This document shows positions 40,500 through 59,298 of a stretch of 64,000 nt of DNA, piece by piece. The notes under the pieces are model-generated. The model saw nothing but the letters and a program-made list of their open reading frames with translations. It did not search any database and was not told the DNA's origin. Every line of letters begins with the position of its first letter. Positions within the stretch are counted from its first letter, which is position 1. Source of the stretch: Limibaculum sp. (GTDB lineage Bacteria; Pseudomonadota; Alphaproteobacteria; Rhodobacterales; Rhodobacteraceae); assembly GCA_039805905.1 (NCBI GenBank), contig JBDIVM010000006.1, positions 120,827 through 184,826 of the forward strand, given 5' to 3'. Position numbers and translations under genes: made by a program.

Positions 40500-40511
40500 T
40501 GGTATACCACG
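40500..40511. promoter_or_regulatory. Putative GntR operator (copy 1)
   Basis: TGGTATACCACG palindrome 72 bp upstream of gntR; identical copy at 48059. Confidence 0.75.
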
Positions 40512-40582: not shown

Positions 40583-41293
40583 ATGGGCAAGACCCTGGAC
40601 CTCAAGCCGGTGGATGGCTCCTTCAGCCTGAAGGAGCACATCTATGACGTGCTCAAGACCAGCATCATGGATCTGGACATCTACGAGCCCGACACCAACC
40701 TGCGCATGGACGAACGGACTCTGGCGGAGCGGCTCGGAATCAGCCGCACGCCGATCCGCGAGGCGATCATGCGGCTCGAGCAGGAGGGATTCGTCGAGAT
40801 CGCACCGCGCCGGGGCGTCTACATCAAGCGCAAGAGCCTCGACGAGATCCTCGAGATGATCACCGTCTGGGCGGCGCTCGAGAGCATGGCCGCCCGCATC
40901 GCCTGCGGGCGCGCGAGCGACGTCGAGATCGCCCGGCTCCGCCGGATCGCCGCACCATTCAACAAGGACAAGGCCAGGGCGCAGATCAGCGAGTACTCCG
41001 AGGCGAACATCGAATTCCACCTCTGCGTGCTCGGCCTCTCAGGGTGCCGGATGCTGCAGGACATTGCCAACGGGCTGTTCACCCACCTGAAGGCGGTGCG
41101 CCGCAAGGCGCTGCAGGACACCGCCCGTGCGGACCGTTCGGTGGTCGACCACATGAACATCATCCAGGCGATCGAGGAGCGGAATGCCGACCTCGCCGCC
41201 GAACTCGTCCGTGAGCATACGTTCCGGCTGCACGACTATATCCGCCGGAGCTGGAAGATGATCGTCGGCCCTGCCCAGGCGGGCGAGGCCTGA
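40583..41293 (+). CDS. GntR-family (FCD domain) transcriptional regulator
   Basis: [18 protein letters not shown]; C-terminal ANIEFH...DHMNII. Confidence 0.92.
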
Positions 41294-41325
41294 CGCCGGC
41301 ATTCGAGAATCAGGGGAGAAGACGC

Positions 41326-43065
41326 ATGGCAGTGGCACCGAGCATGGCGCCCGAACCGACCGCCGAGGCAACGCAGGAACTGACCGATGGGTTCCATCTG
41401 GTCATCGATGCGCTGAAGCTGAACGGCGTGAAGACGATCTATCATGTGCCCGGGATTCCGGTGACGGATCTCGGCCGCATGGCCCAGGCCGAGGGCATCC
41501 GGGTGATCTCGTTCCGACACGAGTCGAACGCGGGCAATGCCGCGGCCATCGCGGGCTACCTGACGAGGAAGCCGGGCATCTGCCTCACCGTGTCCGCGCC
41601 GGGGTTCCTGAACGGCCTCGTCTCGCTCGCCCATGCCACGACCAACTGCTGGCCGATGATCCTGATTTCCGGCTCCTCCGAGCGCGAGATCGTCGACCTG
41701 CAGAAGGGCGACTACGAGGAGATGGACCAGCTCGCCATCGCCAAGCCGCTCTGCAAGGCCGCCTACCGGATCCTGAAGGCCGAGGACATCGGCACTGGTG
41801 TGGCACGGGCCATCCGCGCCGCGGTCTCGGGCCGCCCGGGCGGGGTCTATCTCGACCTGCCGGCCAGCCTGCTCGGCCAGGTCATGGACGCGGCCGAGGG
41901 CGCAAAGTCGCTGGTCAAGGTCGTGGACCCCGCCCCGGCGCAGTTCCCGGCGCCGGCCGCCATCGAGCGGGTCATCGAGGTGCTGAAGAGCGCGAAGAAG
42001 CCGCTCATCATCCTCGGCAAGGGCGCCGCCTACGCCCAGTGCGACGACAGCGTGCGCCGCTTCGTCGAGACCTCGGGCATCCCCTATATCGCGATGTCGA
42101 TGGCAAAGGGTCTTCTCCCCGATGACCATCCGCAATACGCGGGCGCCGCGCGCTCGCTGGTGCTGGCCGAGTCGGATGTGGTCATGCTGATCGGGGCACG
42201 GCTCAACTGGCTCCTGTCGCACGGACGCGGCAAGCAGTGGGGCAGGCCCCACTCCAAGACTTTCGTCCACATCGACATCGACCCGAAGGAGATGGACTCG
42301 AACCAGCCCGTCGCCGCGCCGCTGGTGGGCGACATCGAGTCGTGCCTTGGCGCCCTGCTCGACAGGATGGGGCCGGGCTGGGCGAGGCCGCCCGCCGAAT
42401 GGACGGGCATGGTGCGCGAGAAGGCCGCGGCGAATGTCGCGAAGATGGCCCCGAAGCTCATGAACAACAACGTGCCGATGGATTTCCACGGCGCGCTGGG
42501 CCGGCTGAAGAAGATCATCGCCGATCACCCGGACGCGATCCTGGTGAACGAAGGTGCCAACACGCTCGACTTCGCCCGCTCGGTCATCGACATGGCGAAG
42601 CCCCGGAAGCGGCTCGATGTCGGGACATGGGGGGTGATGGGCATCGGAATGGGCAGCGCAATCGCCGCCGCGATCGAGACCGGCCAGAATGTCATTGCGG
42701 TCGAGGGCGACTCGGCCTTCGGCTTCTCCGGCATGGAGGTCGAGACCATATGCCGCTACGGCCTCCCGGTCTGCGTCGTGATCTTCAACAACTCCGGCAT
42801 CTACCGGGGCACCGACACCGACCCGACGGGGCGCGACCCGGGCACCACGGTGTTCGTCAGGGAATCCAGGTATCACATGATGATGGAGGCCTTCGGCGGT
42901 ATCGGGGTCGAGGCCCGCTCGCCGGACGACCTCGAACGGGCGGTGCGCGACGCCATCGCGTCCCGCAGGCCGACCCTGGTCAACGCCATCATCGACCCGC
43001 AGGCCGGGACCGAATCCGGGCGGATCGGCAATCTCAATCCGCAGAGTGCCGTCAAGAAGAAGTGA
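41326..43065 (+). CDS. oxc: Oxalyl-CoA decarboxylase
   Basis: [55 protein letters not shown]. Confidence 0.96.
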
Positions 43066-43126
43066 TCCGCCGCCGCGGCGCGTGGCGGCAGAAGAACAAC
43101 ATCCCTCAAGCGAACAGGGGAATGAC

Positions 43127-44401
43127 ATGAAAGCTCTGGAAGGCGTCCGGATCCTCGACTTCACCCATGTCCAGTCGGGCCCGACCTGCACCCAGCTCCT
43201 CGCCTGGCTCGGCGCCGACGTCATCAAGGTCGAGCGGCCGGGCGAAGGCGACGCGACTCGCAAGCAGCTTGTGGACGTGCCGGGGGCCGACAGCCTCTAT
43301 TTCACCATGCTGAACCACAACAAGCGGTCGATCGAGCTGAACTCGAAGAACGAGACCGGCAAGGAGGTCCTGACCCGGCTGGTCAGGGCCTGCGACGTGC
43401 TGGTCGAGAACTTCGCCCCGGGCGCCCTCGACCGCATGGGCTTCGGCTGGGAGGTGATCCAGAAGCTCAACCCGCGCATGATCATGGCCTCGGTAAAGGG
43501 CTTCGGCCCGGGCAAGTACGAGGACTGCAAGGTCTATGAGAATGTCGCGCAGTGCGCCGGCGGCTCTGCCTCGACCACTGGCTTCCGCGACGGCCTGCCG
43601 CTGGTCACCGGCGCCCAGATCGGCGATTCCGGCACCGGGCTCCACCTGGCGCTTGGCATCGTCGCTGCGCTGTTCCAGCGCGAGAAGACGGGCCGCGGCC
43701 AGAAGGTGCTGGCGGCGATGCAGGACGGTGTCCTGAACCTCTGCCGCGTCAAGCTGCGCGACCAGCAAAGGCTGGAGAAGGGACCGCTGACCGAGTACTC
43801 CCAGTTTGGCGAGGGCATTCCCTTCGGAGACGCGGTGCCCCGCGCCGGCAACGACTCGGGCGGCGGCCAGCCCGGCCGCATCCTGAAGTGCAAGGGCTGG
43901 GAGACCGATCCCAACGCCTACACCTACTTCATCACCCAGGCTGCGGTCTGGGAGAAGGTCTGCGACGTGATCGGCAGGCCCGAGTGGAAGACCGACCCGA
44001 AATTTGCCACCCCAAAGGCGCGGTTGCCGCATCTGAACGAGATATTCAGCGAAATCGAGAAATGGACCATGACCAAGTCCAAGTTCGAGGTCATGGACAT
44101 CTGCAATCCGCTCGATATTCCCGTCGGCCCGATCCTCAGCATGAAGGAGATCGCGGCGGACGAGGGGCTGCGGGCAACCGGCACCATCGTCGAGGTGGAC
44201 CATCCTGAACGCGGGCCCTACCTCAGCGTCGGCATGCCGATCAAGATGTCGGACAGCCCGGCCGAGGTCGTCCGCTCGCCGCTCCTCGGCGAGCACACGG
44301 TCGAGATCCTCTCAGGCGTTCTCGGCTACTCGGCCGAGGACATCGACCGGATCGCTGCCTCGGGCGCAGTCGGCGACATCCGGCGCGCCGCGGCGGAATG
44401 A
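43127..44401 (+). CDS. frc: Formyl-CoA:oxalate CoA-transferase
   Basis: [36 protein letters not shown]. Confidence 0.96.
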
Positions 44402-44495
44402 CCGGCGGCCGCGCGACTCGCGCCGGGCCGTACCGCACGGAACAGAACGAGCGCCGGCCGGGCCGGGCGCCAGAGAGAGAGGGAGGACAGGCGGC

Positions 44496-45416
44496 ATGCG
44501 CCTCATCGTCAACGGACAGCAGGCCTTCGGCAAGGCGGCACTCGAGAAGATCCTCGAGGCCGGCAGGGACGAGGTGGTCGGCGTCTACACCGCACCCGAC
44601 AAGGACGGCCGCCCCGTCGACCCGCTGAAGGAGGCCGCGCTCGCCCACGGCCTGCCGGTGTTCCAGCCGGCGAACTACAAGGACGGCGAGGCCCTCGACC
44701 AGATGCGCGCGCTGGACGCCGACCTGATGGTCATGGCCTACATGATCATCTTCGTGCCCGAGGAGGCGCGGAACGTGCCCAGGCTCGGCTCGATCTGCTT
44801 CCACCCGTCGCTCCTGCCGCTGCACCGCGGCCCGTCCTCGATCAACTGGCCGATCATCTGGGGTGCGACGAAGACGGGCTTCTCGTGGTTCTACCCGACC
44901 GACGGGCTCGACGAGGGCGACATCCTGATGCAGTGGGAGTGCCCGATCGGCCCGGACGAGACGCTGGGGGATGTCTATTTCAAGAAGATCTTCCCCGCCG
45001 GCGTCGACTCCGTCCTCACGGTCTGCGATCTCTTCCGCGCCGGCAACCCGCCGCGCGCGCCGCAGGACGAGTCGAAGGCGACCTACGAGAGCTGGTGCCG
45101 CAAGCGGGACGCCGCGATCGACTGGGCAAGGCCGGCAGCCGATGTCTACAACCTGATCCGGGGCTGCAATCCGCAGCCCGGCGCCTGGACGACGCTCGGC
45201 GGGGCCGAGGTCCAGGTCTTCGACAGCGCCCGCGCGGGCGAGGGCCCCGGCACGCCCGGCGAGGTCGCATCCGTGTCCGCGGATGGCGTGGTTGTGCAGT
45301 CGGGCGGCGGGCGAATACTTCTAAAACGTGTCCGGCCCGCGGGCGGGGGCAAGGTGCCCGCCGCGGAATGGGCTTCGGAGGCAGGGGTCGCCGCGGGCAC
45401 GCGGCTCGGCTCCTGA
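44496..45416 (+). CDS. Formyltransferase-family protein resembling the N-terminal domain of 10-formyl-THF dehydrogenase (ALDH1L1)
   Basis: [55 protein letters not shown]. Confidence 0.8.
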
Positions 45417-45448
45417 TGGCGCGGAAACACTACTCGGGGAAAATCTGC

Positions 45449-47116
45449 ATGTCGGACATCGAAATCGCCCGCAACGCAAACAAGAAGCCGATCCAGGAGA
45501 TCGGGGCAAAGCTGGGAATCCCCGGCGAGCATCTCCTGCCGTTCGGCCATGACAAGGCCAAGGTCTCGGCCGATTTCATTCAGTCAATTCAGGGCAACAA
45601 GACCGGCAACCTGATCCTGGTCACTGCGATGACACCGACCCCGGCGGGAGAGGGCAAGACCACCACTACCGTCGGCCTTGGCGACGGGCTCAATGCGATC
45701 GGCAAGAAGGCCGTGGTGTGCATCCGCGAGGCCTCGCTCGGGCCGAACTTCGGCATGAAGGGCGGCGCGGCAGGCGGCGGTTATGCCCAGGTGGTGCCGA
45801 TGGAGGATATGAACCTCCACTTTACCGGCGACTTCCATGCGGTCACCTCGGCGCACAACCTGCTCTCGGCGATGATCGACAACCACATCTACTGGGGCAA
45901 TGCACTCGACATTGACACCCGCCGGGTAGTCTGGCGCCGGGTGATGGACATGAACGACCGGGCGCTGCGCGAGATCGTCTGCTCGCTCGGCGGTGTGGCC
46001 AACGGCTTTCCGCGCGAAGCCGGCTTCGACATCACGGTGGCCTCCGAGGTGATGGCGATACTCTGCCTTTCCACCGACCTGAAGGACCTGCAGCAGCGCT
46101 TGGGCGACATCATCGTGGCCTACCGCCGCGATCGCTCGCCCGTCACCTGCCGAGACGTCAAGGCCGACGGGGCGATGGCGGTGCTCCTGAAGGACGCGCT
46201 GCAGCCGAACCTCGTGCAGACGCTCGAGAACAGCCCTGCCTTCGTCCATGGCGGCCCGTTCGCCAACATCGCCCATGGCTGCAACTCGGTCATGGCCACC
46301 ACGACGGCGCTGAAGCTCGCCGACTATGTGGTGACCGAGGCCGGGTTCGGCGCCGACCTCGGAGCCGAGAAGTTCTTCGACATCAAGTGCCGCATGGCCG
46401 GGCTGAAGCCGAAGGCGGTGGTGATCGTGGCGACCATCCGGGCGCTCAAGATGCATGGCGGGGTCAAGAAGGAGGATCTCGGCAAGGGGAACGTCGAGGC
46501 GCTGCAGAAGGGCTGCGCCAATCTCGGCCGCCACCTCGAGAACCTGAAGCAGTTCGGCGTTCCGGCCATCGTCGCGATCAACCACTTCGTTGCCGACACC
46601 GACGCCGAGATCGACGCGCTGAAGAGCTATGTGACGTCCCAAGGCGCCGACGCCGTGTTGTGTCAGCATTGGGCGAAGGGCTCTGAGGGGATCAAGGACC
46701 TTGCCCACAAGGTGGTCAGGCTGGTCGAGGCCAACACCTCGCAGTTCGCACCGCTATACCCGGACGAGATGGGCCTGTTCCAGAAGATCGAGACCATCGC
46801 CAAGCGCATCTACCGCGCCGACGAGGTAGTGGCCGACAAGAAGATCCGCGACCAGCTGAAGGAATGGGAGGAGGCCGGTTTTGCCGGGCTGCCGGTCTGC
46901 ATGGCCAAGACCCAGTATTCCTTCACCACCGACCCGAGCCGCCGCGGCGCGCCAACCGGTCACAGTCTGCCGGTGCGCGAGGTCCGGCTCTCGGCCGGCG
47001 CCGGCTTCGTCGTGGTGATCTGCGGCGAGATCATGACCATGCCGGGCCTGCCCAGAGTTCCGGCCGCCGAGACCATCTGCCTGAACGAGTCAGGCCAGAT
47101 CGAGGGCCTGTTCTAG
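45449..47116 (+). CDS. fhs: Formate--tetrahydrofolate ligase
   Basis: [50 protein letters not shown]. Confidence 0.97.
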
Positions 47117-47127
47117 GGAGATAGACC

Positions 47128-47988
47128 ATGTTGATCGCCCGGATCATGGTTCCCGTTCGCGGCGACGGCAAGGGAGAGAACGTCCTCTCCCACGCCGCCG
47201 CGGTCGCCCGGCGCCACAATGCCCATATCGAGGCAGTGCACTGCCGGGCCCGGCCGCAGGACATGATCCCCTACGGGGTCGTGGTCCCGCGCGCGCTCAG
47301 GGAGCAGATCGCGGCCCAGGCGGTCGAGCTTGCAGATGCCGAGGAGGCCAGGCTGCAGGGGATGTTCCGCGACCTGGTAGCGCGGCTCGGCATCGAACTG
47401 GTCTCGGACGGCATCCCGTCCCGCGACCGCCCCACCGCAAGCTGGCGCGAGGAGCAGGGCAAGCAGATGGACGTGATCCGGCGCCACGGCCGCCTCGCCG
47501 ACCTGGTGGCGGTGGCCAAGCCTGACCGCGACCGAAATCTCGGCCTCAACACCCTGAAGGCAGCGCTGTTCCATACCGGGCGGCCGGTGCTGGTCTGCCC
47601 GCCGGCGGACCGGGTGCCCGACCAGATCGGCCGGAGGGTCGCGATTGCCTGGAACGGCTCGACCGAGGCCGCCAGGGCGGTCGCGCTCGCACTGCCGCTG
47701 ATCCAGGCGGCAGACGAGGTGGTGGTGCTCGACGGTGGCGGCGAGGACGGTGCCGGCGGCGAGGAACTCATGCACTACCTCGCGATTCGCGGGATCGCGG
47801 CCCGCCGCGAGCGGATCGACGCGCAGAACCATCCCGGCCGGGTGATCCTGCAGGCCGCGGCGGCGGCCGGGGCGGATATCCTGGTGATGGGCGCCTACAG
47901 CCGCAGCCGCGAGCAGGAAACCGTGTTCGGAGGGGCAACCCAGCACGTGGTCGACCATATGACCATGCCGGTCGTGATGGTGCACTGA
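47128..47988 (+). CDS. Tandem-domain universal stress protein
   Basis: IAWNGSTEAARA, LVMGAYSRSR, GGATQHV. Confidence 0.88.
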   Translation: MLIARIMVPVRGDGKGENVLSHAAAVARRHNAHIEAVHCRARPQDMIPYGVVVPRALREQIAAQAVELADAEEARLQGMFRDLVARLGIELVSDGIPSRDRPTASWREEQGKQMDVIRRHGRLADLVAVAKPDRDRNLGLNTLKAALFHTGRPVLVCPPADRVPDQIGRRVAIAWNGSTEAARAVALALPLIQAADEVVVLDGGGEDGAGGEELMHYLAIRGIAARRERIDAQNHPGRVILQAAAAAGADILVMGAYSRSREQETVFGGATQHVVDHMTMPVVMVH

Positions 47989-48058
47989 AGCGGTTTTTTC
48001 CGTGCCGTGGCGGCGATCTCTGTTGATTTTTCACCCGCCGCTTATAGGATCAGGTGTG

Positions 48059-48070
48059 TGGTATACCACG
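48059..48070. promoter_or_regulatory. Putative GntR operator (copy 2)
   Basis: (G)TGGTATACCACG just downstream of a candidate TTGATT-N16-TAGGAT promoter (48023-48050) for tctC. Confidence 0.75.
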
Positions 48071-48209
48071 GGAAGGGGCTGCAAACGAAAAGAAGCAGAA
48101 CGCGGTCGGCAGTTCGATACTGCTGAACAAGACCCGCGGCAGGAGGAAGGGAACATCGGGTGTTCCGCCCCATCGCTGGGGAGCGTGCCATAAACCATGG
48201 GAGGATGAG

Positions 48210-49178
48210 ATGGCATTCACACGTCGATTGATGATGGCGGCAAGCGCTGCCGTAATCGGCTTCGCCGGGCTGACCGGCGTCGCACAGGCCTGGGAGCCGA
48301 CGAAGCCGATCGACTTCGTCATCATGGCCGGCCCGGGTGGCGGCGCGGACCAGATCGCGCGCTTCATCCAGTCTGTCGTCGAGAAGAACGGCATGTCGCC
48401 GCGTCCGCTGGTGCCGAACAACAAGGGCGGCGGGTCGGGCGCCGAGGCGCTGATCGCGCTGAAGGGTGCATCCGATCCGGATCACACGATCCTGGTGACG
48501 CTGAACTCGTTCTTCACCACGCCGCTGCGCCAGCCGAACCTCGGCATCGACATCATGACCTTCACGCCCATCCAGATGATGGGGGTCGATCCCTTCGTCC
48601 TCTGGGTCCACAAGGACTCGGGCATCACCAGCTTCGAGCAGTGGGTCGATACGGTGAAGGCCGAGGGCGGCAACTACGTGATGGGCGGAACCGGCAAGGG
48701 TCAGGAAGACTCGATCGTGATCGCCTGGCTCGAGAAGAACTACGACATCAAGGTCAAGTACATCCCCTACAAGGGCGGCGGCGCCGTGGCCAAGGATCTC
48801 GCCGGCAAGCAGGTGGGCGCGACGGTGAACAATCCGGCCGAGGCTCGCGGCTTCTACCAGTCCGGCGATGTCGTTCCGCTGATCGCGTTCTCGGACCAGC
48901 GGCTGCCGAACCTGCCGGACGTGCGCACGGTGAAGGAACTCGGCAAGGACTTCAGCTACTACAACCAGCGTGCCATCGTGGGCGCCCCCGGCATGTCGGC
49001 TGATGCCGCTGCCTTCTACCAGGATCTCTTCGGCAAGGTTGCGGCCTCGGCCGAGTGGCAGGGCTATCTCAGCTCCGAGAGCCTCGAGGCGCTGACGCTC
49101 GATCCCGAGCAGCAGAAGGCCTACTGGGCGACCCAGGTCGAGCGGCACAAGGAGCTGTTCAAGGACATGGGCGAGTAA
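48210..49178 (+). CDS. tctC: Tripartite tricarboxylate transporter substrate-binding protein (Bug/TctC)
   Basis: Signal peptide; GPGGGAD..AR, NKGGGSG, PYKGGG. Confidence 0.9.
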   Translation: MAFTRRLMMAASAAVIGFAGLTGVAQAWEPTKPIDFVIMAGPGGGADQIARFIQSVVEKNGMSPRPLVPNNKGGGSGAEALIALKGASDPDHTILVTLNSFFTTPLRQPNLGIDIMTFTPIQMMGVDPFVLWVHKDSGITSFEQWVDTVKAEGGNYVMGGTGKGQEDSIVIAWLEKNYDIKVKYIPYKGGGAVAKDLAGKQVGATVNNPAEARGFYQSGDVVPLIAFSDQRLPNLPDVRTVKELGKDFSYYNQRAIVGAPGMSADAAAFYQDLFGKVAASAEWQGYLSSESLEALTLDPEQQKAYWATQVERHKELFKDMGE

Positions 49179-49207
49179 GGACAGCCAATCCAGGGGAGGG
49201 CCGGCAG

Positions 49208-49732
49208 ATGCGTCGCGCTGAGATCATCACGGCCGGGGTGCTGGCCCTCTTTTCGCTCTACGTCATGTGGAAGGCCGGCCAGCCGGCATGGGAGGGTGTC
49301 GCCAGATGGAGCAACATCACCTATGTCAGCGGTGAAGGCCCGGGATCCGGCTTCTGGCCGTTCTGGCTGGCTGCCGTCATGCTGGGCTGCACGGTCTGGA
49401 TCGCCGTGAACTGGTGGCGGCGGGCCTCCCCGCTGTCGCGCTCCGGCGAGCGGTTCCTCGACGATCACGGCATAGGCATGCTGATCAAGGTCGGGGGCGG
49501 GGTCCTGGCGCTGATCGGGCTCAACCACATCGTCGGGATGTACGGCGCGATGGCGCTGTTCCTGTTCTACTACCTCTATTTCCTCGGCCGGCACCGGATC
49601 GGCCTGTCGCTCGCGATCGCGCTCGGGGCGCCGGTCGCCACGTTCTTCTTCTTCGATGTCGCGATGCGGATCGTGCTGCCGAAGGGCTATCTCGAGCCGC
49701 TCTTCATCCCGCTCTACGACATCTTCCTCTGA
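49208..49732 (+). CDS. tctB: Tripartite tricarboxylate transporter small membrane subunit
   Basis: Four TM segments; GPGSGFWP, LPKG; between tctC and tctA. Confidence 0.85.
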   Translation: MRRAEIITAGVLALFSLYVMWKAGQPAWEGVARWSNITYVSGEGPGSGFWPFWLAAVMLGCTVWIAVNWWRRASPLSRSGERFLDDHGIGMLIKVGGGVLALIGLNHIVGMYGAMALFLFYYLYFLGRHRIGLSLAIALGAPVATFFFFDVAMRIVLPKGYLEPLFIPLYDIFL

Positions 49733-49795
49733 TCCAGGGCTTCGTTCCGGGGCCGGCATGCGCAATCCGCCCGCCGATCCCGCCGGGAGACAAAG

Positions 49796-51313
49796 ATGGA
49801 CATCCTCTCGCATCTGATCGATGGCATCCTGACCGCGTTCCAGCCGCTGAACCTGATGATAGTGATCATCGGGGTCACCATCGGCCTGATCATCGGCGCG
49901 ATGCCGGGGCTCGGGTCGGTCAACGGGGTCGCGATCCTGCTGCCGGCCACCTTCCTGGTGCCGCCGACGACGGCGATGATCTTCCTCGCCGCGATCTATT
50001 ACGGGGCGATGTATGGCGGCGCGATCTCGTCGATCACGCTCGGGATACCGGGAGCATCGACGGCGGTTGCCACGGTATTCGACGGTCGGCCGCTGGCGCT
50101 CCAGGGCAAGGCGGACAAGGCGCTGGTCGCGGCGGCGGTCGCCTCCTGCGTCGGCGGCACGGTGGCCAACATCCTGTTTACGGCCTTCGCTCCGCCACTG
50201 GCGCATGTTGCGCTGAGCTTCGGCCCGCCCGAGATCTTCGCGCTGATGCTGCTCGCCTTCGCCACCTTCATCGGCCTCGGCGGCGACGACATCCCGAAGA
50301 CCATCCTCTCGATCTGCCTCGGCCTCGTCCTCGCTACGGTGGGCTTCGACGAGATCTCCGGGGCGCCCCGTCTGGTCTTCTTCGAGATCACCGGCTTCAT
50401 GCACGGCATCAACTTCCTGGTTCTGGCGATCGGGGTCTATGGCATCGGCGAGATGCTGTGGACGATCAACGCGTCCCGCAACGACGTCTCGATGACCTCC
50501 GTCGAGATCGGCGCGCGCCGGATCGTGCTCGCGGCGAAGGAATCCTTCACCGCCTGGCGCGGCATGGCGATCGGCTCCTCGCTCGGGTTCTTCGTCGGCG
50601 TGCTGCCGGCGGCCGGTGCCACGCCCGGCGCGCTGATGGCCTACGGCCTGACCAAGATGACGGCGAAGAACCCGCAGAACTTCGGCAAGGGGGCGCTCAA
50701 CGGCGTGACCGCACCGGAATCCGCGAACAACTCGGCGGCCGCCGGCTCGATGCTGCCGATGATCACGCTCGGCATCCCCGGCTCGCCCACCACTGCAATC
50801 CTGCTCGGCGGCATGGTGATCTGGGGCCTGCAGCCGGGACCGCGGCTCTTCGCTGAGCAGCCCGAGTTCGTCTGGCCCCTGATCGGCTCGCTCTACGTCT
50901 CGAACCTGATGGCGATGGTGATGAACCTGGCGTTCATTCCGATGTTCCTGTGGATGCTGCGGATGCCGTTCACGATCCTCGCGCCGATGATCTTCGTGCT
51001 CTCGGTGGTTGGCGGCTATGCCGCGACGCAGGACATGCACGACGTCTGGCTGATGCTGATTTTCGGGATCGGCGCCTTCTTCCTCAGGATGCTCGACTAC
51101 CCCTTGGCGCCCGCGGTGCTCGCGATCGTGCTGGGCCCGCAGACCGAGGAGTCGCTGCGCCAGTCGCTGCTGATGAGTTCGGGCGATCCCTTGATCTTCG
51201 TCAGCCGGCCGATCGCCGGTCCGATCACCGTGATCGCGCTCATCCTGATCTTCCTGCCCCTCGTCGGCGTCATCCGGCGACGGCTCGGAGCAGGGACGAG
51301 GACGGCGACCTGA
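49796..51313 (+). CDS. tctA: Tripartite tricarboxylate transporter large membrane subunit
   Basis: GAMPGLG, YYGAMYGG, APESANN, LGIPGSPTTA. Confidence 0.95.
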   Translation: MDILSHLIDGILTAFQPLNLMIVIIGVTIGLIIGAMPGLGSVNGVAILLPATFLVPPTTAMIFLAAIYYGAMYGGAISSITLGIPGASTAVATVFDGRPLALQGKADKALVAAAVASCVGGTVANILFTAFAPPLAHVALSFGPPEIFALMLLAFATFIGLGGDDIPKTILSICLGLVLATVGFDEISGAPRLVFFEITGFMHGINFLVLAIGVYGIGEMLWTINASRNDVSMTSVEIGARRIVLAAKESFTAWRGMAIGSSLGFFVGVLPAAGATPGALMAYGLTKMTAKNPQNFGKGALNGVTAPESANNSAAAGSMLPMITLGIPGSPTTAILLGGMVIWGLQPGPRLFAEQPEFVWPLIGSLYVSNLMAMVMNLAFIPMFLWMLRMPFTILAPMIFVLSVVGGYAATQDMHDVWLMLIFGIGAFFLRMLDYPLAPAVLAIVLGPQTEESLRQSLLMSSGDPLIFVSRPIAGPITVIALILIFLPLVGVIRRRLGAGTRTAT

Positions 51314-51389: not shown

Positions 51390-52367
51390 TCAGACAGCCA
51401 GCAGGATCTTCCCCCTCAGCCCGCCGGCCTCCATCAGGCGGTGCGCCTCGGCCGCCTCGGCCAGCGGCAGCACCGTCTGGGTCACCGCCCGCAGCCTGCC
51501 CGCCGCGAACATCGGCCAGGCCCGCGCCTCGAGATCGGCCGCCACTGCCGTCTTGAACGCGTCCGGCCGCGGCCTGAGCGTCGAGCCGGTGAGCGTGATG
51601 CGCTTCAGCATCACCGGCATCAGATCGATCGCCACCTTCGATCCTGCCCGGAAGGCAAGCTGCACGATCCGGCAGTCCGTCGCCGCGGCCTTGAAGTTGC
51701 GCGCCACATAGTCGCCGCCCATGATGTCGAGAATCATGGAGGCCCCGCCCGAGGCCCGCACCGCCTCGGCGAAATCCTCCTCGCGATAGTTGATCGCCTG
51801 CTCCGCACCCAGCGATTCGCAGAATGCGCAGGACTCCGCCGAGCCCGCGGTCGCGAACACCCGCAGCCCCAGCGCCGCGCCGAGCTGGATCGCCGTCGAG
51901 CCGATTCCTCCACTGCCGCCATGCACGAGGAAGATGCTGCCGGGGGGCGGCGTGTGGCCGAAGAAGAAATTGCTCCAGACGGTGAAGTAGGTCTCGCAGA
52001 GCCCGCCCGCATCGACGAGACCCACGCCCGCCGGCACGGGCAGCACATGCCCCGCCTCGACCGCGACGTACTCGGCATAGCCGCCGCCCTTGGTCAGCGC
52101 GCAGACCTTGTCGCCCGCATTCCAGCGGCGGACCTCCTCCCCGACCGCAGCGATTTCACCCGAGATCTCGAGCCCCGGAAGGTCCGAGGCGCCGGGCGGC
52201 GGTGCGTAGAGCCCCTTGCGCTGCATCACGTCCGGCCCGTTCACGCCTGCCGCTGCAACGCGGATCAGCACCTGGCCGGCACCGGGCTCCGGCACCGGCC
52301 GTTTCGCCGGGCTCAGCACATCCGGCCCGCCTGGCGCGCGGATCTCGATCACCGTCATCTGGGCCAT
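51390..52367 (-). CDS. NADPH:quinone oxidoreductase (PIG3/zeta-crystallin family)
   Basis: AAGVNGPD..QRKG, PGLE, HGGSGGIG, GSTLRPR. Confidence 0.9.
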   Translation of the reverse strand: MAQMTVIEIRAPGGPDVLSPAKRPVPEPGAGQVLIRVAAAGVNGPDVMQRKGLYAPPPGASDLPGLEISGEIAAVGEEVRRWNAGDKVCALTKGGGYAEYVAVEAGHVLPVPAGVGLVDAGGLCETYFTVWSNFFFGHTPPPGSIFLVHGGSGGIGSTAIQLGAALGLRVFATAGSAESCAFCESLGAEQAINYREEDFAEAVRASGGASMILDIMGGDYVARNFKAAATDCRIVQLAFRAGSKVAIDLMPVMLKRITLTGSTLRPRPDAFKTAVAADLEARAWPMFAAGRLRAVTQTVLPLAEAAEAHRLMEAGGLRGKILLAV

Positions 52368-52499: not shown

Positions 52500-53177
52500 A
52501 TGATGAGCGACCGGACCGCCGCCGACCTTCCCCAGACTGCTCCGCTGCCGGGATACCTGGTCGATCGCTATCGCGCCTGGCACGGCCGCAGTTTCGTCGA
52601 GAACCGCGCCTGGTATGCCCGCCTCGCCGCCGTGGGCCAGCGGCCCCGCGCCATGGTGATCTCCTGCTGCGACAGCCGTATCGACATCGTCCAGATGTTC
52701 GCGGCCGAGCCCGGCGACCTCTTCGTGCTGCGCAGCGTCGCCAATCTGGTGCCGCCCTTCAGCCCCGACCCGAAGCATCACGGCACCTCGGCAGCGGTCG
52801 AATACGCGGTCAACGTGCTGAAGGTCGCCCATATCGTGGTCGTCGGCCACTCGCACTGCGGCGGCGTCCAGGCCTGCCACGACATGTGCGCCGGTCTCGC
52901 CCCCGAACTCGAGGAGAGGTCCAGCTTCATCGGCCGCTGGATGGACATCCTGCGCCCCGGCTACGCGCATGTCGCGGCCATGGTGCCCGAGAGCAGCGCC
53001 CGCCGGTCGGCGCTCGAGCACGAGGCCGTGCTGACCTCGCTCCGCAACCTCGGCACCTTCCCCTTCGTCGTCGAGGCGGTGGCCGAGGGCCTGCTGACGC
53101 TCCACGGCGCTTTCGTCGAGATCGGCACCGGGGCGCTGCTGGCCTATCGCGACGGCCAGGGCTTCACGCCGGTCTGA
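52500..53177 (+). CDS. Beta-class carbonic anhydrase
   Basis: SCCDSR, GDLFVLRSVANLV, HSHCGG. Confidence 0.93.
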   Translation: MMSDRTAADLPQTAPLPGYLVDRYRAWHGRSFVENRAWYARLAAVGQRPRAMVISCCDSRIDIVQMFAAEPGDLFVLRSVANLVPPFSPDPKHHGTSAAVEYAVNVLKVAHIVVVGHSHCGGVQACHDMCAGLAPELEERSSFIGRWMDILRPGYAHVAAMVPESSARRSALEHEAVLTSLRNLGTFPFVVEAVAEGLLTLHGAFVEIGTGALLAYRDGQGFTPV

Positions 53178-54785: not shown

Positions 54786-55808
54786 TCAGCCCTTCCCCAG
54801 GCAGCGCCGGCCGAGGAGTTCGGCGATCTGCACCGCGTTCAGCGCCGCGCCCTTGCGCAGGTTGTCCGACACCACCCAGATCGAGAGCCCGTTCTCGATC
54901 GTCGGATCCTCGCGGATGCGGCTGACATAGGTCGCATACTCGCCGACGCAGTCGAGCGGGGTCACGTAGCCGCCCGGCTCGCGCTTGTCGACGACCACGA
55001 CGCCCGGCGCCTCGCGCAGGATCTCGCGCGCCTCGTCGGCCGAGAGCGGCTCCTCGAACTCGATGTTCACCGCCTCGGAATGGCCGACGAAGACCGGCAC
55101 CCGCACGCAGGTCGCATGCACCCTGATCTTCGGGTCGACGATCTTCTTCGTCTCGACCACCATCTTCCATTCCTCCTTGGTGGCGCCGTCATCGAGGAAG
55201 ACGTCGATATGGGGAATGACGTTGAAGGCAATCTGCTTGGTGAACTTCTTCGGCGCCACCTCCTGGCCCGGCACATAGAGCCCCTTGGTCTGGGTCCAGA
55301 GCTCGTCCATGGCCGCCTTGCCGGCGCCCGAGACCGACTGGTAGGTGGCGACCACCACGCGCCTGATCCGCGCCCGGTCGTGCAAGGGCTTCAGCGCCAC
55401 CACCATCTGCGCCGTCGAGCAGTTGGGGTTGGCGATGATGTTGCGGTTCCGGTAGGCCTCGACCGCGTCCGGGTTCACCTCCGGCACGATCAGGGGAATG
55501 TCAGGCTCGTAGCGGTAGAGCGACGAGTTGTCGATCACCACCGCGCCGGCCCTCGCCGCCTTTGGCCCGTATTCCTTCGTGGGCCCCGAACCGATGGCAA
55601 AGAGCGCGATGTCGGTGCCCCTGAAGTCGTAGGTATCCAGGTCCCGGGTTTTCAGGGTCTTCTCGCCATAGCTGACCTCGGTGCCCAGCGACTTGCGCGA
55701 GGCAAGCGCGATCACCTCGTCCGCGGGAAACTCCCGCTCCGAGAGGATGTTCAGCATCTCGCGGCCCACATTCCCCGTGGCACCCGCGACGGCGACCTTG
55801 TAACCCAT
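54786..55808 (-). CDS. asd: Aspartate-semialdehyde dehydrogenase
   Basis: GATGNVG, NPNCST, YQSVSGAG, CVRVPV, DNLRKGAALN. Confidence 0.97.
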   Translation of the reverse strand: MGYKVAVAGATGNVGREMLNILSEREFPADEVIALASRKSLGTEVSYGEKTLKTRDLDTYDFRGTDIALFAIGSGPTKEYGPKAARAGAVVIDNSSLYRYEPDIPLIVPEVNPDAVEAYRNRNIIANPNCSTAQMVVALKPLHDRARIRRVVVATYQSVSGAGKAAMDELWTQTKGLYVPGQEVAPKKFTKQIAFNVIPHIDVFLDDGATKEEWKMVVETKKIVDPKIRVHATCVRVPVFVGHSEAVNIEFEEPLSADEAREILREAPGVVVVDKREPGGYVTPLDCVGEYATYVSRIREDPTIENGLSIWVVSDNLRKGAALNAVQIAELLGRRCLGKG

Positions 55809-55911
55809 CTCCCTGGTCCCTGGCTGGAGTATTCGGACCGGCGGGGTTTACATGGTTTCGACAGGCAGGGGAATAGCGCTGTCGGCGCCGATTGCCGGGA
55901 CCAGCCGCCGC

Positions 55912-57411
55912 TCACCCCAGCGCCCGCCGGTAGCTCACCGCCTCCGCCACATGGACCTTGCGCACGGCGTCCGAGCCGTCGAGGTCGGCGAGCGTGCGCG
56001 CCAGCCGCAGCACCCGGTGGTAGCCCCGCGCGGTGAGCTTCAGCTTCTCGGCGGCCGCCCGCAGCACCTGCTGCCCGGGCGCGTCCGGGGCCGCGACCCG
56101 GTCGAGGATCTCGCCTTCCAGTTCGCCGTTCGTGAGTCTGGATCCGTTCATCCGCCCGGCCTGCGCCCCGCGCGCCTCCGCCACGCGCTGGGCGATCCTG
56201 GCCGAGGACTCACCATGAGGCGGCAGGGCGAGGGTATCGGGCGTCACCGGCGGCACCTCGATCCTGATGTCGAAGCGGTCGACGAGCGGACCGGAGAGCC
56301 GGGCGACGTAGTCCGCGCCGCAGCGCGGCGCCCGCGAGCAGGCGCGCGAGGGATCGGTGAGGTAGCCGCAGCGGCACGGGTTCATCGCCGCCACCAGCAG
56401 GAAGCGCGCCGGGTAGCGCACATGGGCGTTGGCCCGGCTGACCACCACCTCGCCGGTCTCGATCGGCTGGCGCAGCGCCTCCAGCACGGGGCGCGCGAAC
56501 TCCGGCAGCTCGTCGAGGAACAGCACGCCCCGGTGGGCGAGCGAGATCTCGCCCGGCTTCGCCTGGATGCCGCCGCCGATCATCGCCGGCATCGAGGCGG
56601 AATGGTGCGGCGCCCGGTAGGGCCGCTCCTTGAAGATGGTGCCGTCGCCAGGCTGCGCGGCCAGCGAGTAGATCGTCGAGACCTCGAGCGCCTCCTCGGG
56701 GCTCAAGGGCGGCATGATGCCGGTCAGCCGCGCGGCCAGCATCGACTTGCCGGACCCCGGCTCGCCCACCATCAGGATGTGGTGGTTGCCGGCCGCCGCC
56801 ACCTCGAGCGCGCGCCGCGCCGCCTCCTGCCCCTTCACGTCGATCAGGTCGGCAGCCGAGCGGCGCGCCGCGACCGGCCCCGGCTCGGGCGGGCTCAGCG
56901 CCTTCCTGCCCTTGAAGTGGTTGACGAGGTCAATGAGCGAGGCGGGAGCCAGAACCTCGGCGGCGCCGACCCAGGCCGCCTCGGCGCCCGAGCCTTCGGG
57001 GCAGATCAGGCCGCGCTCCTGCGCCGCCGCCGCGAGCGCCGCGGGCAACGCCCCCTGCACGGCCCGGATCCGCCCGTCGAGGCTCAGCTCGCCCAGCGCC
57101 ACATGGCCCTCGAGCTCCTCGGGCGGGATCAGGCCCAGCGCCCCCATCAGCGCCAGCGCGATCGGGAGATCGTAGTGAGACCCGGCCTTCGGCAGGTCGG
57201 CCGGCGAGAGGTTCACGGTGATCCGCTGCGGCGGCAGGGCAAGCCCGATCGCCGCCAGCGAGGCGCGTACCCGCTCGCGCGACTCCGACACCGCCTTGTC
57301 GGGCAGGCCGACCAGGTTGAACGCGTGCATGCCCGGCGTCAGCGCGCACTGCACCTCGACCGGCCTCGCCTCGACGCCGAGGAATGCCACCGTGTGCGCC
57401 CGGGTGACCAT
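55912..57411 (-). CDS. comM: YifB/ComM Mg-chelatase-like AAA+ ATPase
   Basis: VGLPDKAVSESRERV, NLSPADLPK.GS.YDL, GEPGSGKS, HRGVLFLDELPEF, SGPLVDRFD. Confidence 0.95.
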   Translation of the reverse strand: MVTRAHTVAFLGVEARPVEVQCALTPGMHAFNLVGLPDKAVSESRERVRASLAAIGLALPPQRITVNLSPADLPKAGSHYDLPIALALMGALGLIPPEELEGHVALGELSLDGRIRAVQGALPAALAAAAQERGLICPEGSGAEAAWVGAAEVLAPASLIDLVNHFKGRKALSPPEPGPVAARRSAADLIDVKGQEAARRALEVAAAGNHHILMVGEPGSGKSMLAARLTGIMPPLSPEEALEVSTIYSLAAQPGDGTIFKERPYRAPHHSASMPAMIGGGIQAKPGEISLAHRGVLFLDELPEFARPVLEALRQPIETGEVVVSRANAHVRYPARFLLVAAMNPCRCGYLTDPSRACSRAPRCGADYVARLSGPLVDRFDIRIEVPPVTPDTLALPPHGESSARIAQRVAEARGAQAGRMNGSRLTNGELEGEILDRVAAPDAPGQQVLRAAAEKLKLTARGYHRVLRLARTLADLDGSDAVRKVHVAEAVSYRRALG

Positions 57412-57463
57412 TGCCGCCTCGCGCCGGTCTGAGGATAACTGCTCCATCGGTGGGTGGCATCGG

Positions 57464-57478
57464 TTAACGCAGGGTTAA
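57464..57478. promoter_or_regulatory. CtrA binding site
   Basis: Exact TTAA-N7-TTAA (TTAACGCAGGGTTAA) 53 bp upstream of comM; TTAA is rare in this GC-rich DNA. Confidence 0.8.
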
Positions 57479-57514
57479 CCGGGCACCGCTATCGGAGATC
57501 AGGTGGAGGCACAC

Positions 57515-57871
57515 ATGCGCATCGTCATTCTCGCGGCAGCCCTGTGCCTGGCGCTGCCGGCGCTCGCCGGCCCCGCCGACGTGCTCGAGGTCAGGGCAAG
57601 GCAGTCCGGCGGCGCCTGGAGCTTCGACGTGACCGTGCGCCATGCGGATGCGGGGTGGGATCACTACGCCGACGCCTGGCGCGTGGTCGGCCCGGACGGC
57701 ACGGTCTACGGCACGCGAGAGCTCCTCCATCCGCATGTGGACGAGCAGCCCTTCACCCGCTCGCTCGACGGCGTCGCAATCCCGGCAGAGGTCACCGACG
57801 TCACCGTCGAGGCCCATGACAGCCGGCATGGATGGGGCGGCTCGGCCGTCACCGTCACCTTGCCGCGGTAG
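57515..57871 (+). CDS. Small periplasmic His-rich protein
   Basis: Signal peptide ALA-GP; HADAGWDHYADAW, HPHVDEQPFTRS, HDSRHGW. Confidence 0.8.
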   Translation: MRIVILAAALCLALPALAGPADVLEVRARQSGGAWSFDVTVRHADAGWDHYADAWRVVGPDGTVYGTRELLHPHVDEQPFTRSLDGVAIPAEVTDVTVEAHDSRHGWGGSAVTVTLPR

Positions 57872-57875
57872 GCGT

Positions 57876-58130
57876 TCAGGGGCGCTTCACCATGGCCCGG
57901 GCGATGCCGAAGCCCGCGATGGCGAGCCACAACACCTCGATCAGGATCGCGCCCGGATTGGGCCGGAAGTAAAGCGACACCAACAGCAGGATCGAGCCTG
58001 CGGCATTGACGACGTGGAAGGCGAAGCCCTCGGGGTTCACGCGCCCGAGGCTGATAGCAAGATAGGCCGCGCAGATCATGAGCGAGCCGACCACGCCGAC
58101 GAAGTCCAGGGCGTTGAATTCGCTCCACAT
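57876..58130 (-). CDS. Small membrane protein (CBU_0592-like)
   Basis: GVVGSLMICAAY, VNAAGSILLLVSL, IEVLWLAI. Confidence 0.75.
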   Translation of the reverse strand: MWSEFNALDFVGVVGSLMICAAYLAISLGRVNPEGFAFHVVNAAGSILLLVSLYFRPNPGAILIEVLWLAIAGFGIARAMVKRP

Positions 58131-58188
58131 CCGTGCCTCCGGTTCCGGGGCGCGCCGGCCCGCGGCGCCTCCGACAACCGATAGCACG

Positions 58189-59298
58189 TCAGGCGCGCGC
58201 CGCCAGCGCCGTCACGATGGCATCGCCCATTTCCGAGGTCGAGACCGGTTTACCGCCCGCAGCGCCCATCAGGTCGGCGGTGCGCACACCCCCGGCCAGC
58301 ACGTCCTCGATGGCACCCTCGAGCAAGTCCGCCTCGGCGCCGAGGTCGAACGAATAGCGTAGCGCCATGGCAAAGCTCAGTATGCTGGCGATCGGGTTGG
58401 CCCGCGCCTTCCCGGCGATGTCGGGCGCGCTCCCGTGCACCGGCTCGTAGAGCGCCTTCGGCCGCCCGTTGGCCATCGGCGCGCCGAGGCTCGCGGAGGG
58501 GAGCATCCCGAGCGAGCCGGTCAGCATCGCCGCGCAGTCCGAGAGGATGTCGCCGAACAGGTTGTCCGTGACGATCACGTCGAACTGCTTGGGGTTGCGC
58601 ACCAGCTGCATGGCGCCGTTGTCGGCATACATGTGGCTGAGCTCGACATCGGGGTATTCGTTGTCGTGCACCCACTGCACCTCCTCGCGCCACAGGATGC
58701 CGGCCTCCATGACGTTGGCCTTCTCCATCGAGCAAAGCCGGTTCCGGCGCTTGCGCGCCAGCGCGAAGGCCGAGCGCGCCACCCGCCGGATTTCTTCGGT
58801 GGTGTAGCGGTGGGTGTTGATGCCGACCCTTGTGCCGTCGTTGAGCTCGGTGATCCCGCGCGGCTCGCCGAAATACATGCCGCTGGTCAGCTCGCGCACG
58901 ATCATGATGTCGAGCCCGGCGACGATCTCGCGCTTCAGGGACGAGAAGTCCGCCAGCGCGTCGAAGCACTGCGCGGGGCGGAGATTGGCGTAGAGGTCCA
59001 TTTCCTTCCGGAGCCTGAGCAGCCCGCGCTCCGGCTTCAGCGCGAAGGGCAGGCTGTCATACTTCGGCCCGCCGACCGCACCCAGAAGCACCGCGTCGGT
59101 CGCCTGCGCCCTGGCCATGGTCGCGTCGGACAGGGGCCTTCCGTGCACGTCGTAGGCCGCGCCGCCGACGAGGTCCTCCTCGACGGCGAACTCAAGGCCA
59201 CGATTGGCCGCAAACCAGTCGATCACCTTGCGGACCTCGGCCATCACCTCGGGGCCGATGCCGTCGCCCGGCAGGATCAGGAGCTTCATCGCGGCCAT
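58189..59298 (-). CDS. leuB: 3-isopropylmalate dehydrogenase
   Basis: [60 protein letters not shown]. Confidence 0.96.

Follow-up and report, generated by a model that had tools for sequence, protein, structure and literature searches.

A conserved, co-regulated oxalate import and breakdown gene set of alphaproteobacteria and the predicted role of its formyltransferase

Why should genes for the breakdown of oxalate stand in one block with genes for a formyltransferase, a formate-tetrahydrofolate ligase (Fhs) and a tripartite tricarboxylate transporter (TTT)? This question is raised by a locus of the alphaproteobacterium Limibaculum sp. (assembly GCA_039805905.1, contig JBDIVM010000006.1), in which nine open reading frames (ORFs), all on the + strand, occupy 40.5-51.3 kb of the 64-kb stretch of DNA that was analyzed, hereafter the window (G+C approximately 70%). 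A preliminary description of this DNA had proposed that the block captures oxalate-derived one-carbon (C1) units on tetrahydrofolate (THF) instead of exporting formate. The analyses described below demonstrate that the block belongs to a real, widely conserved, co-regulated gene set for oxalate import and breakdown in marine and soil alphaproteobacteria, and suggest that its stand-alone formyltransferase (FT), mislabelled in public databases, is a probable source of formyl-CoA, drawn from formyl-folate, with which the breakdown cycle would be started and kept going.

A conserved gene set and its operators

Comparison with Pfam and NCBIfam profiles, whose curated family cut-offs are meant wherever a cut-off is given, assigns the nine ORFs as follows; the two operators discussed below are listed with them.

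40500-40509: operator 1, the perfect 10-bp palindrome TGGTATACCA, 75 bp 5' of the gntR ATG
40584-41293, + strand: gntR, regulator of the FadR/FCD subfamily (PF00392 GntR, 53.7 bits; PF07729 FCD, 84.6 bits)
41326-43065, + strand: oxc, thiamine diphosphate (ThDP)-dependent oxalyl-CoA decarboxylase (TIGR03254, 970.8 bits, cut-off 739.4; NF006721, 976 bits)
43124-44401, + strand: frc, formyl-CoA:oxalate CoA-transferase (TIGR03253, 711.2 bits, cut-off 504.2)
44496-45416, + strand: FT, stand-alone Formyl_trans_N+C protein of 306 aa (PF00551 and PF02911)
45443-47116, + strand: fhs, formate-tetrahydrofolate ligase (NF010030, 939.2 bits, cut-off 652)
47128-47988, + strand: usp, tandem universal stress protein, accessory (PF00582, two stretches)
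48059-48068: operator 2, TGGTATACCA inside GTGGTATACCAC, 139 bp 5' of the tctC ATG
48207-49178, + strand: tctC, periplasmic solute-binding protein of the TTT (PF03401, 86.5 bits)
49205-49732, + strand: tctB, small membrane subunit of the TTT (PF07331, 56.3 bits)
49796-51313, + strand: tctA, large membrane subunit of the TTT (PF01970, 464.5 bits)

The genes are separated by 11-94 bp, with the exception of usp and tctC, between which lie 218 bp. The ORF of gntR is open from 40547, and its ATG at 40584 is preceded by a GGAGGA ribosome-binding site, while the adjacent TctC, TctB and TctA genes, the first of which encodes a product with a signal-peptide-like N-terminus, form a complete three-component TTT set. 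Since all ORFs of the block are assigned to the families listed, the block contains no OxlT, formate dehydrogenase (FDH), oxalyl-CoA reductase or oxalyl-CoA synthetase; in this, and in the co-directional and closely spaced arrangement of the nine genes, the preliminary description was accurate.

The arrangement recurs well beyond the window. When one genome per species was scanned, 361 relatives were obtained, and the loci of the best 80 (1.17 Mb), from Thermohalobaculum, Limibaculum, Albidovulum, other Paracoccaceae, Hyphomicrobiaceae, Rhodospirillales and Kiloniellaceae, were compared; some counts were taken over 85 related loci and others over a subset with full flanks (n = 35). The best 120 matches to FT are all at least 72% identical to it. 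In every related locus whose contig has room, frc lies upstream of FT, at a distance of less than 400 bp in 55 of 71 loci and of 0.4-1.3 kb in the remainder, and fhs directly follows FT in 59 of the 63 loci with room. Among the loci with full flanks, a GntR homologue is present in all 35, Oxc or a substitute ThDP enzyme in 32, a TctA homologue in 28, and Usp in only 9. The TTT genes precede the catabolic genes in some loci, follow them in others and are divergently oriented in yet others, and such varied placement argues for a functional rather than an accidental linkage. Even a 1.4-Mb genome with 35% G+C has kept tctCBA-gntR-ThDP-frc-FT. Similarly, in a sample of 300 family-balanced alphaproteobacterial genomes, 22 encode FT (at E <= 1e-50) and 25 encode an Frc that exceeds its cut-off, with both in 20 and the pair directly adjacent in 13 of those 20; the two genomes with FT alone are fragmented assemblies of 490-600 contigs. 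A search for FT among plasmids returned one true match only. Taken together, recurrence in more than 80 loci of other species, as revealed by the synteny survey that the preliminary description had proposed, and the co-occurrence of FT with Frc mean that the gene arrangement is not due to chance.

Some variation in the spacing of frc and FT was also observed. Of the approximately 16 loci with a gap of 0.4-1.3 kb, two were read (L051, 9169-9975; L044, 8832-9668), and in both a gene for a Glyoxalase_3 protein of the VOC superfamily (approximately 270 aa), absent from the window, lies between frc and FT. In a further locus (L099, on contig G330:C2, 7600-17400) the two genes are 10 kb apart, and the intervening DNA encodes an rve-family transposase, an HsdM fragment, a KAP NTPase and an IS-type HTH protein, suggesting that mobile DNA was inserted and split a once-adjacent pair.

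FadR-like GntR regulators have operators of the type T.GT-N-AC.A. The palindrome TGGTATACCA matches this pattern, is sited before both gntR and tctC, and is kept in relatives: it occurs twice in the 64 kb, against 0.19 matches expected, and as 58 exact copies in the 1.17 Mb of the 80 related loci, where TGGTnnACCA sites were counted 34 times immediately before gntR and 24 times immediately before tctC. Because this footprint repeats before gntR and tctC in relatives, the sequence data support the existence of two co-regulated units, gntR-oxc-frc-FT-fhs-usp and tctCBA, each behind its own operator, and GntR is probably an autoregulated repressor of the regulon. A promoter and terminator scan yielded no sigma-70-like promoter and only weak terminator-like stems, one of which (48003-48015) lies ahead of operator 2. 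From the conserved linkage and the shared operator, oxalate is predicted to be the substrate of the TTT, with TctC, one of only three TctC proteins encoded in the genome, as a candidate oxalate receptor. The architecture is that of the TctCBA citrate transporter and other characterized TTTs, from which the predicted substrate sets it apart; in the literature, no paper describing an oxalate TTT was found. The earlier view of a discrete, self-regulated module with a binding-protein-dependent importer of its own is thus borne out by the repeated palindrome, and the importer's membership by the several arrangements in which TctCBA accompanies the cluster.

Oxc and its replacements bear on whether the substrate of this gene set is indeed oxalate. 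In 28 of 85 related loci, the position between gntR and frc is filled by a ThDP enzyme whose identity to Oxc is only 22-25% (for example at 6895-8628 of L067, and also in L022, L060, L073, L092-L094, L096, L099 and L100). The top NCBIfam match of this enzyme, PRK05858 at 434 bits, is below cut-off, and in the Protein Data Bank (PDB) it is closest to an actinobacterial 2-hydroxyacyl-CoA lyase (E 1.6e-74) and to other 2-hydroxyacyl-CoA lyase (HACL)/synthase enzymes, with canonical Oxc behind (E approximately 3e-47). A cluster acting on another small dicarboxylate or on a 2-hydroxyacyl-CoA, with Oxc serving as a 2-hydroxyacyl-CoA lyase, might account for such enzymes. We regard this as highly improbable: Oxc and Frc of the window score far above their equivalog cut-offs, and in most related loci Frc keeps 72-92% identity regardless of the ThDP enzyme that accompanies it. 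The substitute looks, from its sequence, like a non-orthologous replacement drawn from the formyl-CoA-forming HACL/Oxc superfamily, and because the replacements fall in a superfamily whose characterized members form formyl-CoA, their closest relatives suggest that formyl-CoA metabolism is the conserved core of the module.

The identity of the formyltransferase

Nearly all of the FT homologues that bear a name, among the best 120 matches, are labelled as methionyl-tRNA formyltransferase (Fmt), the name that public annotations also give to FT itself. Several lines of evidence are at odds with this label. Firstly, FT scores 142.6 bits against the Fmt profile TIGR00460, under the cut-off of 201.5, and a true Fmt is encoded elsewhere in the genome (contig C4, 273 bits), to which FT is 34% identical. 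Secondly, the best matches of FT in the PDB are the N-terminal domains of ALDH1L1, a 10-formyl-THF dehydrogenase (E 2e-60), followed by Fmt (6e-42), ArnA and the N-domain of HypX, the last being a weak match (E 2e-10) that spans residues 75-290 only; with the rat ALDH1L1 N-domain, FT shares 42% identity over 288 residues. Thirdly, in a FastTree phylogeny of 111 sequences with SH-like support, FT groups with its relatives, rat ALDH1L1-Nt and fused forms of more than 600 aa in a clade of 53 rows (support 98), while the genome's own Fmt falls in a separate clade of 58 rows.

Residues of the active site follow the same division. His103 and Asp139 of FT, which align with His106 and Asp142 of ALDH1L1, are invariant in both clades, whereas the Asn of the Fmt N-x-H motif, present in 57 of 57 sequences of the Fmt clade, is replaced by Gln or Cys in the FT clade. 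In the close FT family the residue in place of this Asn, two positions before the catalytic His, is an invariant Cys (Cys101 of FT), while Gln predominates there in the more distant part of the FT/ALDH1L1 clade; Cys101 may tune FT for a thiol acceptor. By its sequence, then, FT is a formyltransferase of the ALDH1L1 N-terminal type and not an Fmt.

That the formyl group is instead passed by FT to an amine, a sugar nucleotide, a tRNA or another such acceptor, and that FT stands beside frc and fhs merely through a common demand for C1 units, would agree with its annotation and with the breadth of the Formyl_trans_N/C superfamily, which includes Fmt, ArnA and sugar N-formyltransferases. There is very little to be said for this possibility, given the Fmt score under cut-off, the true Fmt elsewhere in the genome and the absence of the Fmt-invariant Asn; moreover, the cluster conserves no candidate gene for forming such an acceptor, and Frc is present in 20 of the 22 FT-bearing genomes.

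What reaction might FT then catalyze? The N-domain of ALDH1L1 transfers the formyl group of 10-formyl-THF to the thiol of 4'-phosphopantetheine, and its in vitro "hydrolase" activity is thiol-dependent (PMC8748788). HypX has been proposed from structures to formylate CoA with its N-domain (PMC6802093), and for LctF, the formation of formyl-CoA out of 10-formyl-THF and CoA has been demonstrated in vitro (PMC11730586). By analogy with these three precedents, FT is most likely a 10-formyl-THF:CoA formyltransferase. Like the ALDH1L1 N-domains of known structure (PDB 1s3i, 2bw0, 4qpd, 7rlu), with which it shares a clade, FT keeps the catalytic His and Asp and has no Fmt-type Asn; it differs from ALDH1L1 in being a stand-alone protein with neither carrier nor aldehyde dehydrogenase domain, in its predicted acceptor, free CoA, and in its oxalate and formyl-CoA context. 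LctF and HypX, Fmt-like proteins with formyl transfer to CoA demonstrated for the former and proposed for the latter, serve in secondary metabolism and in the maturation of hydrogenase, respectively, rather than in catabolism, and FT is likened to LctF by the reaction described for it and not by sequence.

The in vitro behavior of ALDH1L1 also bears on a hydrolytic function. In isolation, its N-domain, to which FT is 42% identical, hydrolyzes 10-formyl-THF, and FT could accordingly be imagined as a PurU-like 10-formyl-THF hydrolase or as a formyl-CoA hydrolase that frees formate to buffer the folate or CoA pools during oxalate catabolism. This function is improbable: hydrolysis by ALDH1L1-Nt depends on thiols that are not physiological and is itself not regarded as physiological (PMC8748788), a hydrolase adjacent to Fhs would create an ATP-wasting futile cycle, and the tight co-occurrence of FT and Frc would be left unexplained.

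Proposed priming of the cycle versus capture of one-carbon units

Taken together, these data are best accommodated by a GntR-controlled oxalate-utilization regulon of two units in which formate is mostly oxidized and the Frc/Oxc cycle is primed with formyl-CoA that Fhs and FT regenerate, a model that we hold with moderate confidence. Oxalate would be taken up through TctCBA. Frc would then move CoA from formyl-CoA to oxalate, and Oxc would convert the resulting oxalyl-CoA to formyl-CoA and CO2; the families of these two enzymes are established by their profile scores, and their activities are predicted from family membership. The formate released would mainly be oxidized by an unlinked NAD-type FDH. 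Finally, Fhs would use ATP to join formate to THF, and FT would transfer the formyl group from 10-formyl-THF to CoA, so that the pair would make formyl-CoA de novo. Frc, Fhs and FT would in this way act jointly as an ATP-dependent "oxalyl-CoA synthetase" of three enzymes, formate being the catalytic carrier, and where oxalyl-CoA is drawn off for assimilation, the Fhs-FT branch would supply the CoA ester stoichiometrically.

The need for such a branch follows from the nature of the cycle. The half-life of formyl-CoA is 1.9 h, and the concept of priming comes from YfdE, the solution adopted by E. coli (PMC3720670). Being autocatalytic with respect to a labile thioester, the Frc/Oxc cycle requires a seed and continual topping-up; Fhs followed by FT, which would be the only de novo route to formyl-CoA in the conserved module and a capability that Frc, Oxc and Fhs lack by themselves, fits this requirement, and the branch would thus fill the role of YfdE in E. 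coli. An ATP-yielding route in the opposite direction, from formyl-CoA through 10-formyl-THF to formate and ATP, was considered and rejected, as Frc already conserves the thioester and a net gain is impossible.

The remainder of the genome (3.85 Mb, 18 contigs) was searched by tblastn with the proteins of the window and of an island on plasmid pLA6_002 that is described below; seven ThDP paralogues and nine family III CoA-transferase paralogues were in addition scanned with NCBIfam profiles, an AHAS-looking ThDP paralogue (C2:42933-44858) and two further CoA-transferase paralogues lying outside those scans. The genome contains one copy each of oxc, the frc orthologue, fhs and FT, and 11 other family III CoA-transferases, each at most 33% identical to Frc. 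No YfdE equivalent was detected among the nine CoA-transferase paralogues scanned (best 292 bits, cut-off 522), and a genome-wide search for oxlT, which the preliminary description had called for, found none (best TIGR04259 match 62.7 bits, cut-off 335). That description had likewise pointed to fdh and serine-cycle genes, and here the outcome was divided. An FDH is present: an FdsA-type (NAD-type) alpha subunit is encoded on contig C7 (749.5 bits; 75% identical to the FDH adjoining the module on pLA6_002) and an FdsB-like subunit on contig C4, and FDH genes adjoin the cluster in relatives. The M. extorquens-type serine-cycle set (Ppc, HprA, Sga, PanE2) was not encountered in the tblastn searches with pLA6_002 proteins: these found no Ppc, no close HprA (best match 32% identical), a Sga-like best match at 46% identity, and no validated PanE2, for which no PanE family search of the genome was made. 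A homologue on contig C9, 54% identical to the "ketopantoate reductase" of pLA6_002, was considered as a PanE2 candidate and, having no Pfam or NCBIfam match, is not called PanE2. FolD and MetF are present. No glyoxylate carboligase (Gcl) was found among the seven ThDP paralogues scanned, no dedicated Gcl family search of the genome having been made.

These findings bear directly on the capture of C1 units on THF. Under this explanation FT runs from formyl-CoA and THF to 10-formyl-THF and CoA, Fhs adds more 10-formyl-THF, and the C1 units of oxalate are assimilated via folate. The conservation of Fhs in the cluster and the absence of OxlT from the genome speak for it, as does plasmid pLA6_002, where the module lies beside folD, glyA, a sga-like gene, hprA, ppc and metF. 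Formyl transfer should be near equilibrium, and thermodynamics somewhat favor the direction from formyl-CoA to 10-formyl-THF, which counts for capture and against priming. We nevertheless consider capture, though the main rival of priming, unlikely; the earlier claim that C1 units are captured instead of formate being exported is, in that form, unsupported, and the preliminary description as a whole finds partial support. The Frc/Oxc cycle conserves the CoA thioester, so a drain of formyl-CoA onto THF would stall it unless another primer exists and, as judged by stoichiometric reasoning, would save no ATP relative to Fhs alone. As no Gcl, Ppc or close HprA was found by the searches above, and the genome does possess an FDH, bulk C1 assimilation would be without a visible outlet. 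Serine-cycle genes are seldom found near the module, a sga-like gene occurring in 3 of 85 loci, and with ALDH1L1-Nt, HypX and LctF the direction of transfer is in each case from folate to a thiol. Fhs and FT therefore fit better as a formyl-CoA-regenerating branch, while a supply of C1 units by Fhs is also possible.

Several considerations besides the equilibrium weigh against priming by Fhs and FT. The in vivo direction of FT is one that we infer from stoichiometric reasoning and by analogy; the role of the FT family in an oxalate setting is, by the same analogy, a predicted one, and oxalate is a putative ligand of TctC and a putative effector of GntR. Any of the 11 other family III CoA-transferases could prime the Frc/Oxc cycle, and in approximately 14 related loci there is a SucCD-like CoA ligase as well. 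On pLA6_002, the same module lies inside a serine-cycle/C1 island, which suits an assimilatory role of Fhs. An AlphaFold2 model computed for FT from an alignment of 15 sequences had a mean pLDDT of 70.8, with residues 104-171 below 50; its catalytic region was of low quality, and the model was not used.

Comparison with known oxalate degraders places the proposed branch in context. The block shares with Oxalobacter formigenes (oxc, frc, oxlT) and with the yfdXWUVE genes of E. coli the same Oxc/Frc equivalogs and the same CoA-conserving decarboxylation cycle. The need for priming is common to this cycle and that of E. coli, which meets it with YfdE (PMC3720670). Unlike these systems, the Limibaculum genome encodes neither an OxlT antiporter nor a YfdE equivalent, and the block brings with it a TTT importer, an FCD-type GntR with its operator, Fhs, an ALDH1L1-N-type formyltransferase and Usp. 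The Oxc/Frc core is textbook knowledge and the chemistry of FT is known from LctF and HypX; in the literature, no paper was found in which oxalotrophy is tied to a formyltransferase or to a TTT transporter, and neither is mentioned in the oxalotrophy reviews consulted or in two recent surveys.

A further comparison is offered by Methylorubrum extorquens AM1, which reportedly uses oxalate aerobically with Oxc, Frc, the oxalyl-CoA reductase PanE2, FtfL, FDH and the serine cycle. This organism is likewise an aerobic alphaproteobacterium whose formate is directed either to FDH or to formate-THF ligase, and the module of pLA6_002, embedded in a serine-cycle-like island, resembles it in this respect. 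The Limibaculum genome differs in having no detectable Ppc or Gcl and no validated PanE2. It is a broader proposal that Frc, Fhs and FT form a natural ATP-dependent route from formate through formyl-CoA to oxalyl-CoA that seeds and sustains the Frc/Oxc cycle in most oxalate-degrading alphaproteobacteria, and we advance it tentatively, judging it nearly, though not quite, as probable as its contrary.

Associated genes and wider significance

The module on pLA6_002 (CP031587.1), a 180-kb plasmid of Paracoccaceae strain La 6, is set in a C1/serine-cycle-like island at approximately 43-90 kb (L101-L103) that also contains two FDH operons, ppc, ppdK, two SucCD-like pairs, folA, folD, metF, glyA, a sga-like aminotransferase gene and hprA; in its annotation, TctC appears as argininosuccinate lyase and FT as fmt_2. 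This plasmid may represent the case in which oxalyl-CoA is withdrawn and a stoichiometric supply is needed. Its gene order at 55762-58822 of CP031587.1 is qor-sucD-sucC. Homologues (approximately 60% identity) of an MDR-type quinone oxidoreductase that flanks the block in the window are found near the module in 12 loci, and a two-subunit, SucCD-like, ADP-forming CoA ligase in approximately 14, some of which also have the oxidoreductase homologue (L060, L063, L066, L067, L070, L071, L075, L078, L081, L085, L090, L092, L094 and L095 for one or both). The SucCD-like ligase may be a second route of CoA-ester supply or a malate thiokinase; in the Limibaculum genome, SucCD is represented by the housekeeping pair only.

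In the window itself, the block is flanked upstream by mutS on the minus strand and downstream by the gene of the quinone oxidoreductase (51390-52367, - strand), convergent with tctA. Just beyond lies a gene for a beta-class carbonic anhydrase (52500-53177, + strand), which could be connected to the CO2 released by Oxc or could be there by coincidence. Elsewhere in the genome (G000 C2:360346-374535), a pair of family III CoA-transferases is encoded together with a GntR paralogue and with a class V aminotransferase that shares 46% identity with the sga-like protein of pLA6_002; these may form another small-acid or glyoxylate-related cluster.

Oxalate turnover is relevant to carbon cycling in soil and in the sea, and surveys of it use oxc, frc and oxlT as sole markers. 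Many alphaproteobacteria, as described here, carry a different importer, a TTT, together with a dedicated GntR regulon and an extra pair of enzymes. That pair, Fhs and FT, is a concrete candidate solution to the problem of how the Frc/Oxc cycle is primed. Should FT indeed make formyl-CoA from 10-formyl-THF, then Fhs and FT would constitute a natural route from formate to formyl-CoA that is useful for the engineering of synthetic C1 assimilation, and thousands of database entries now reading "methionyl-tRNA formyltransferase" would be corrected.

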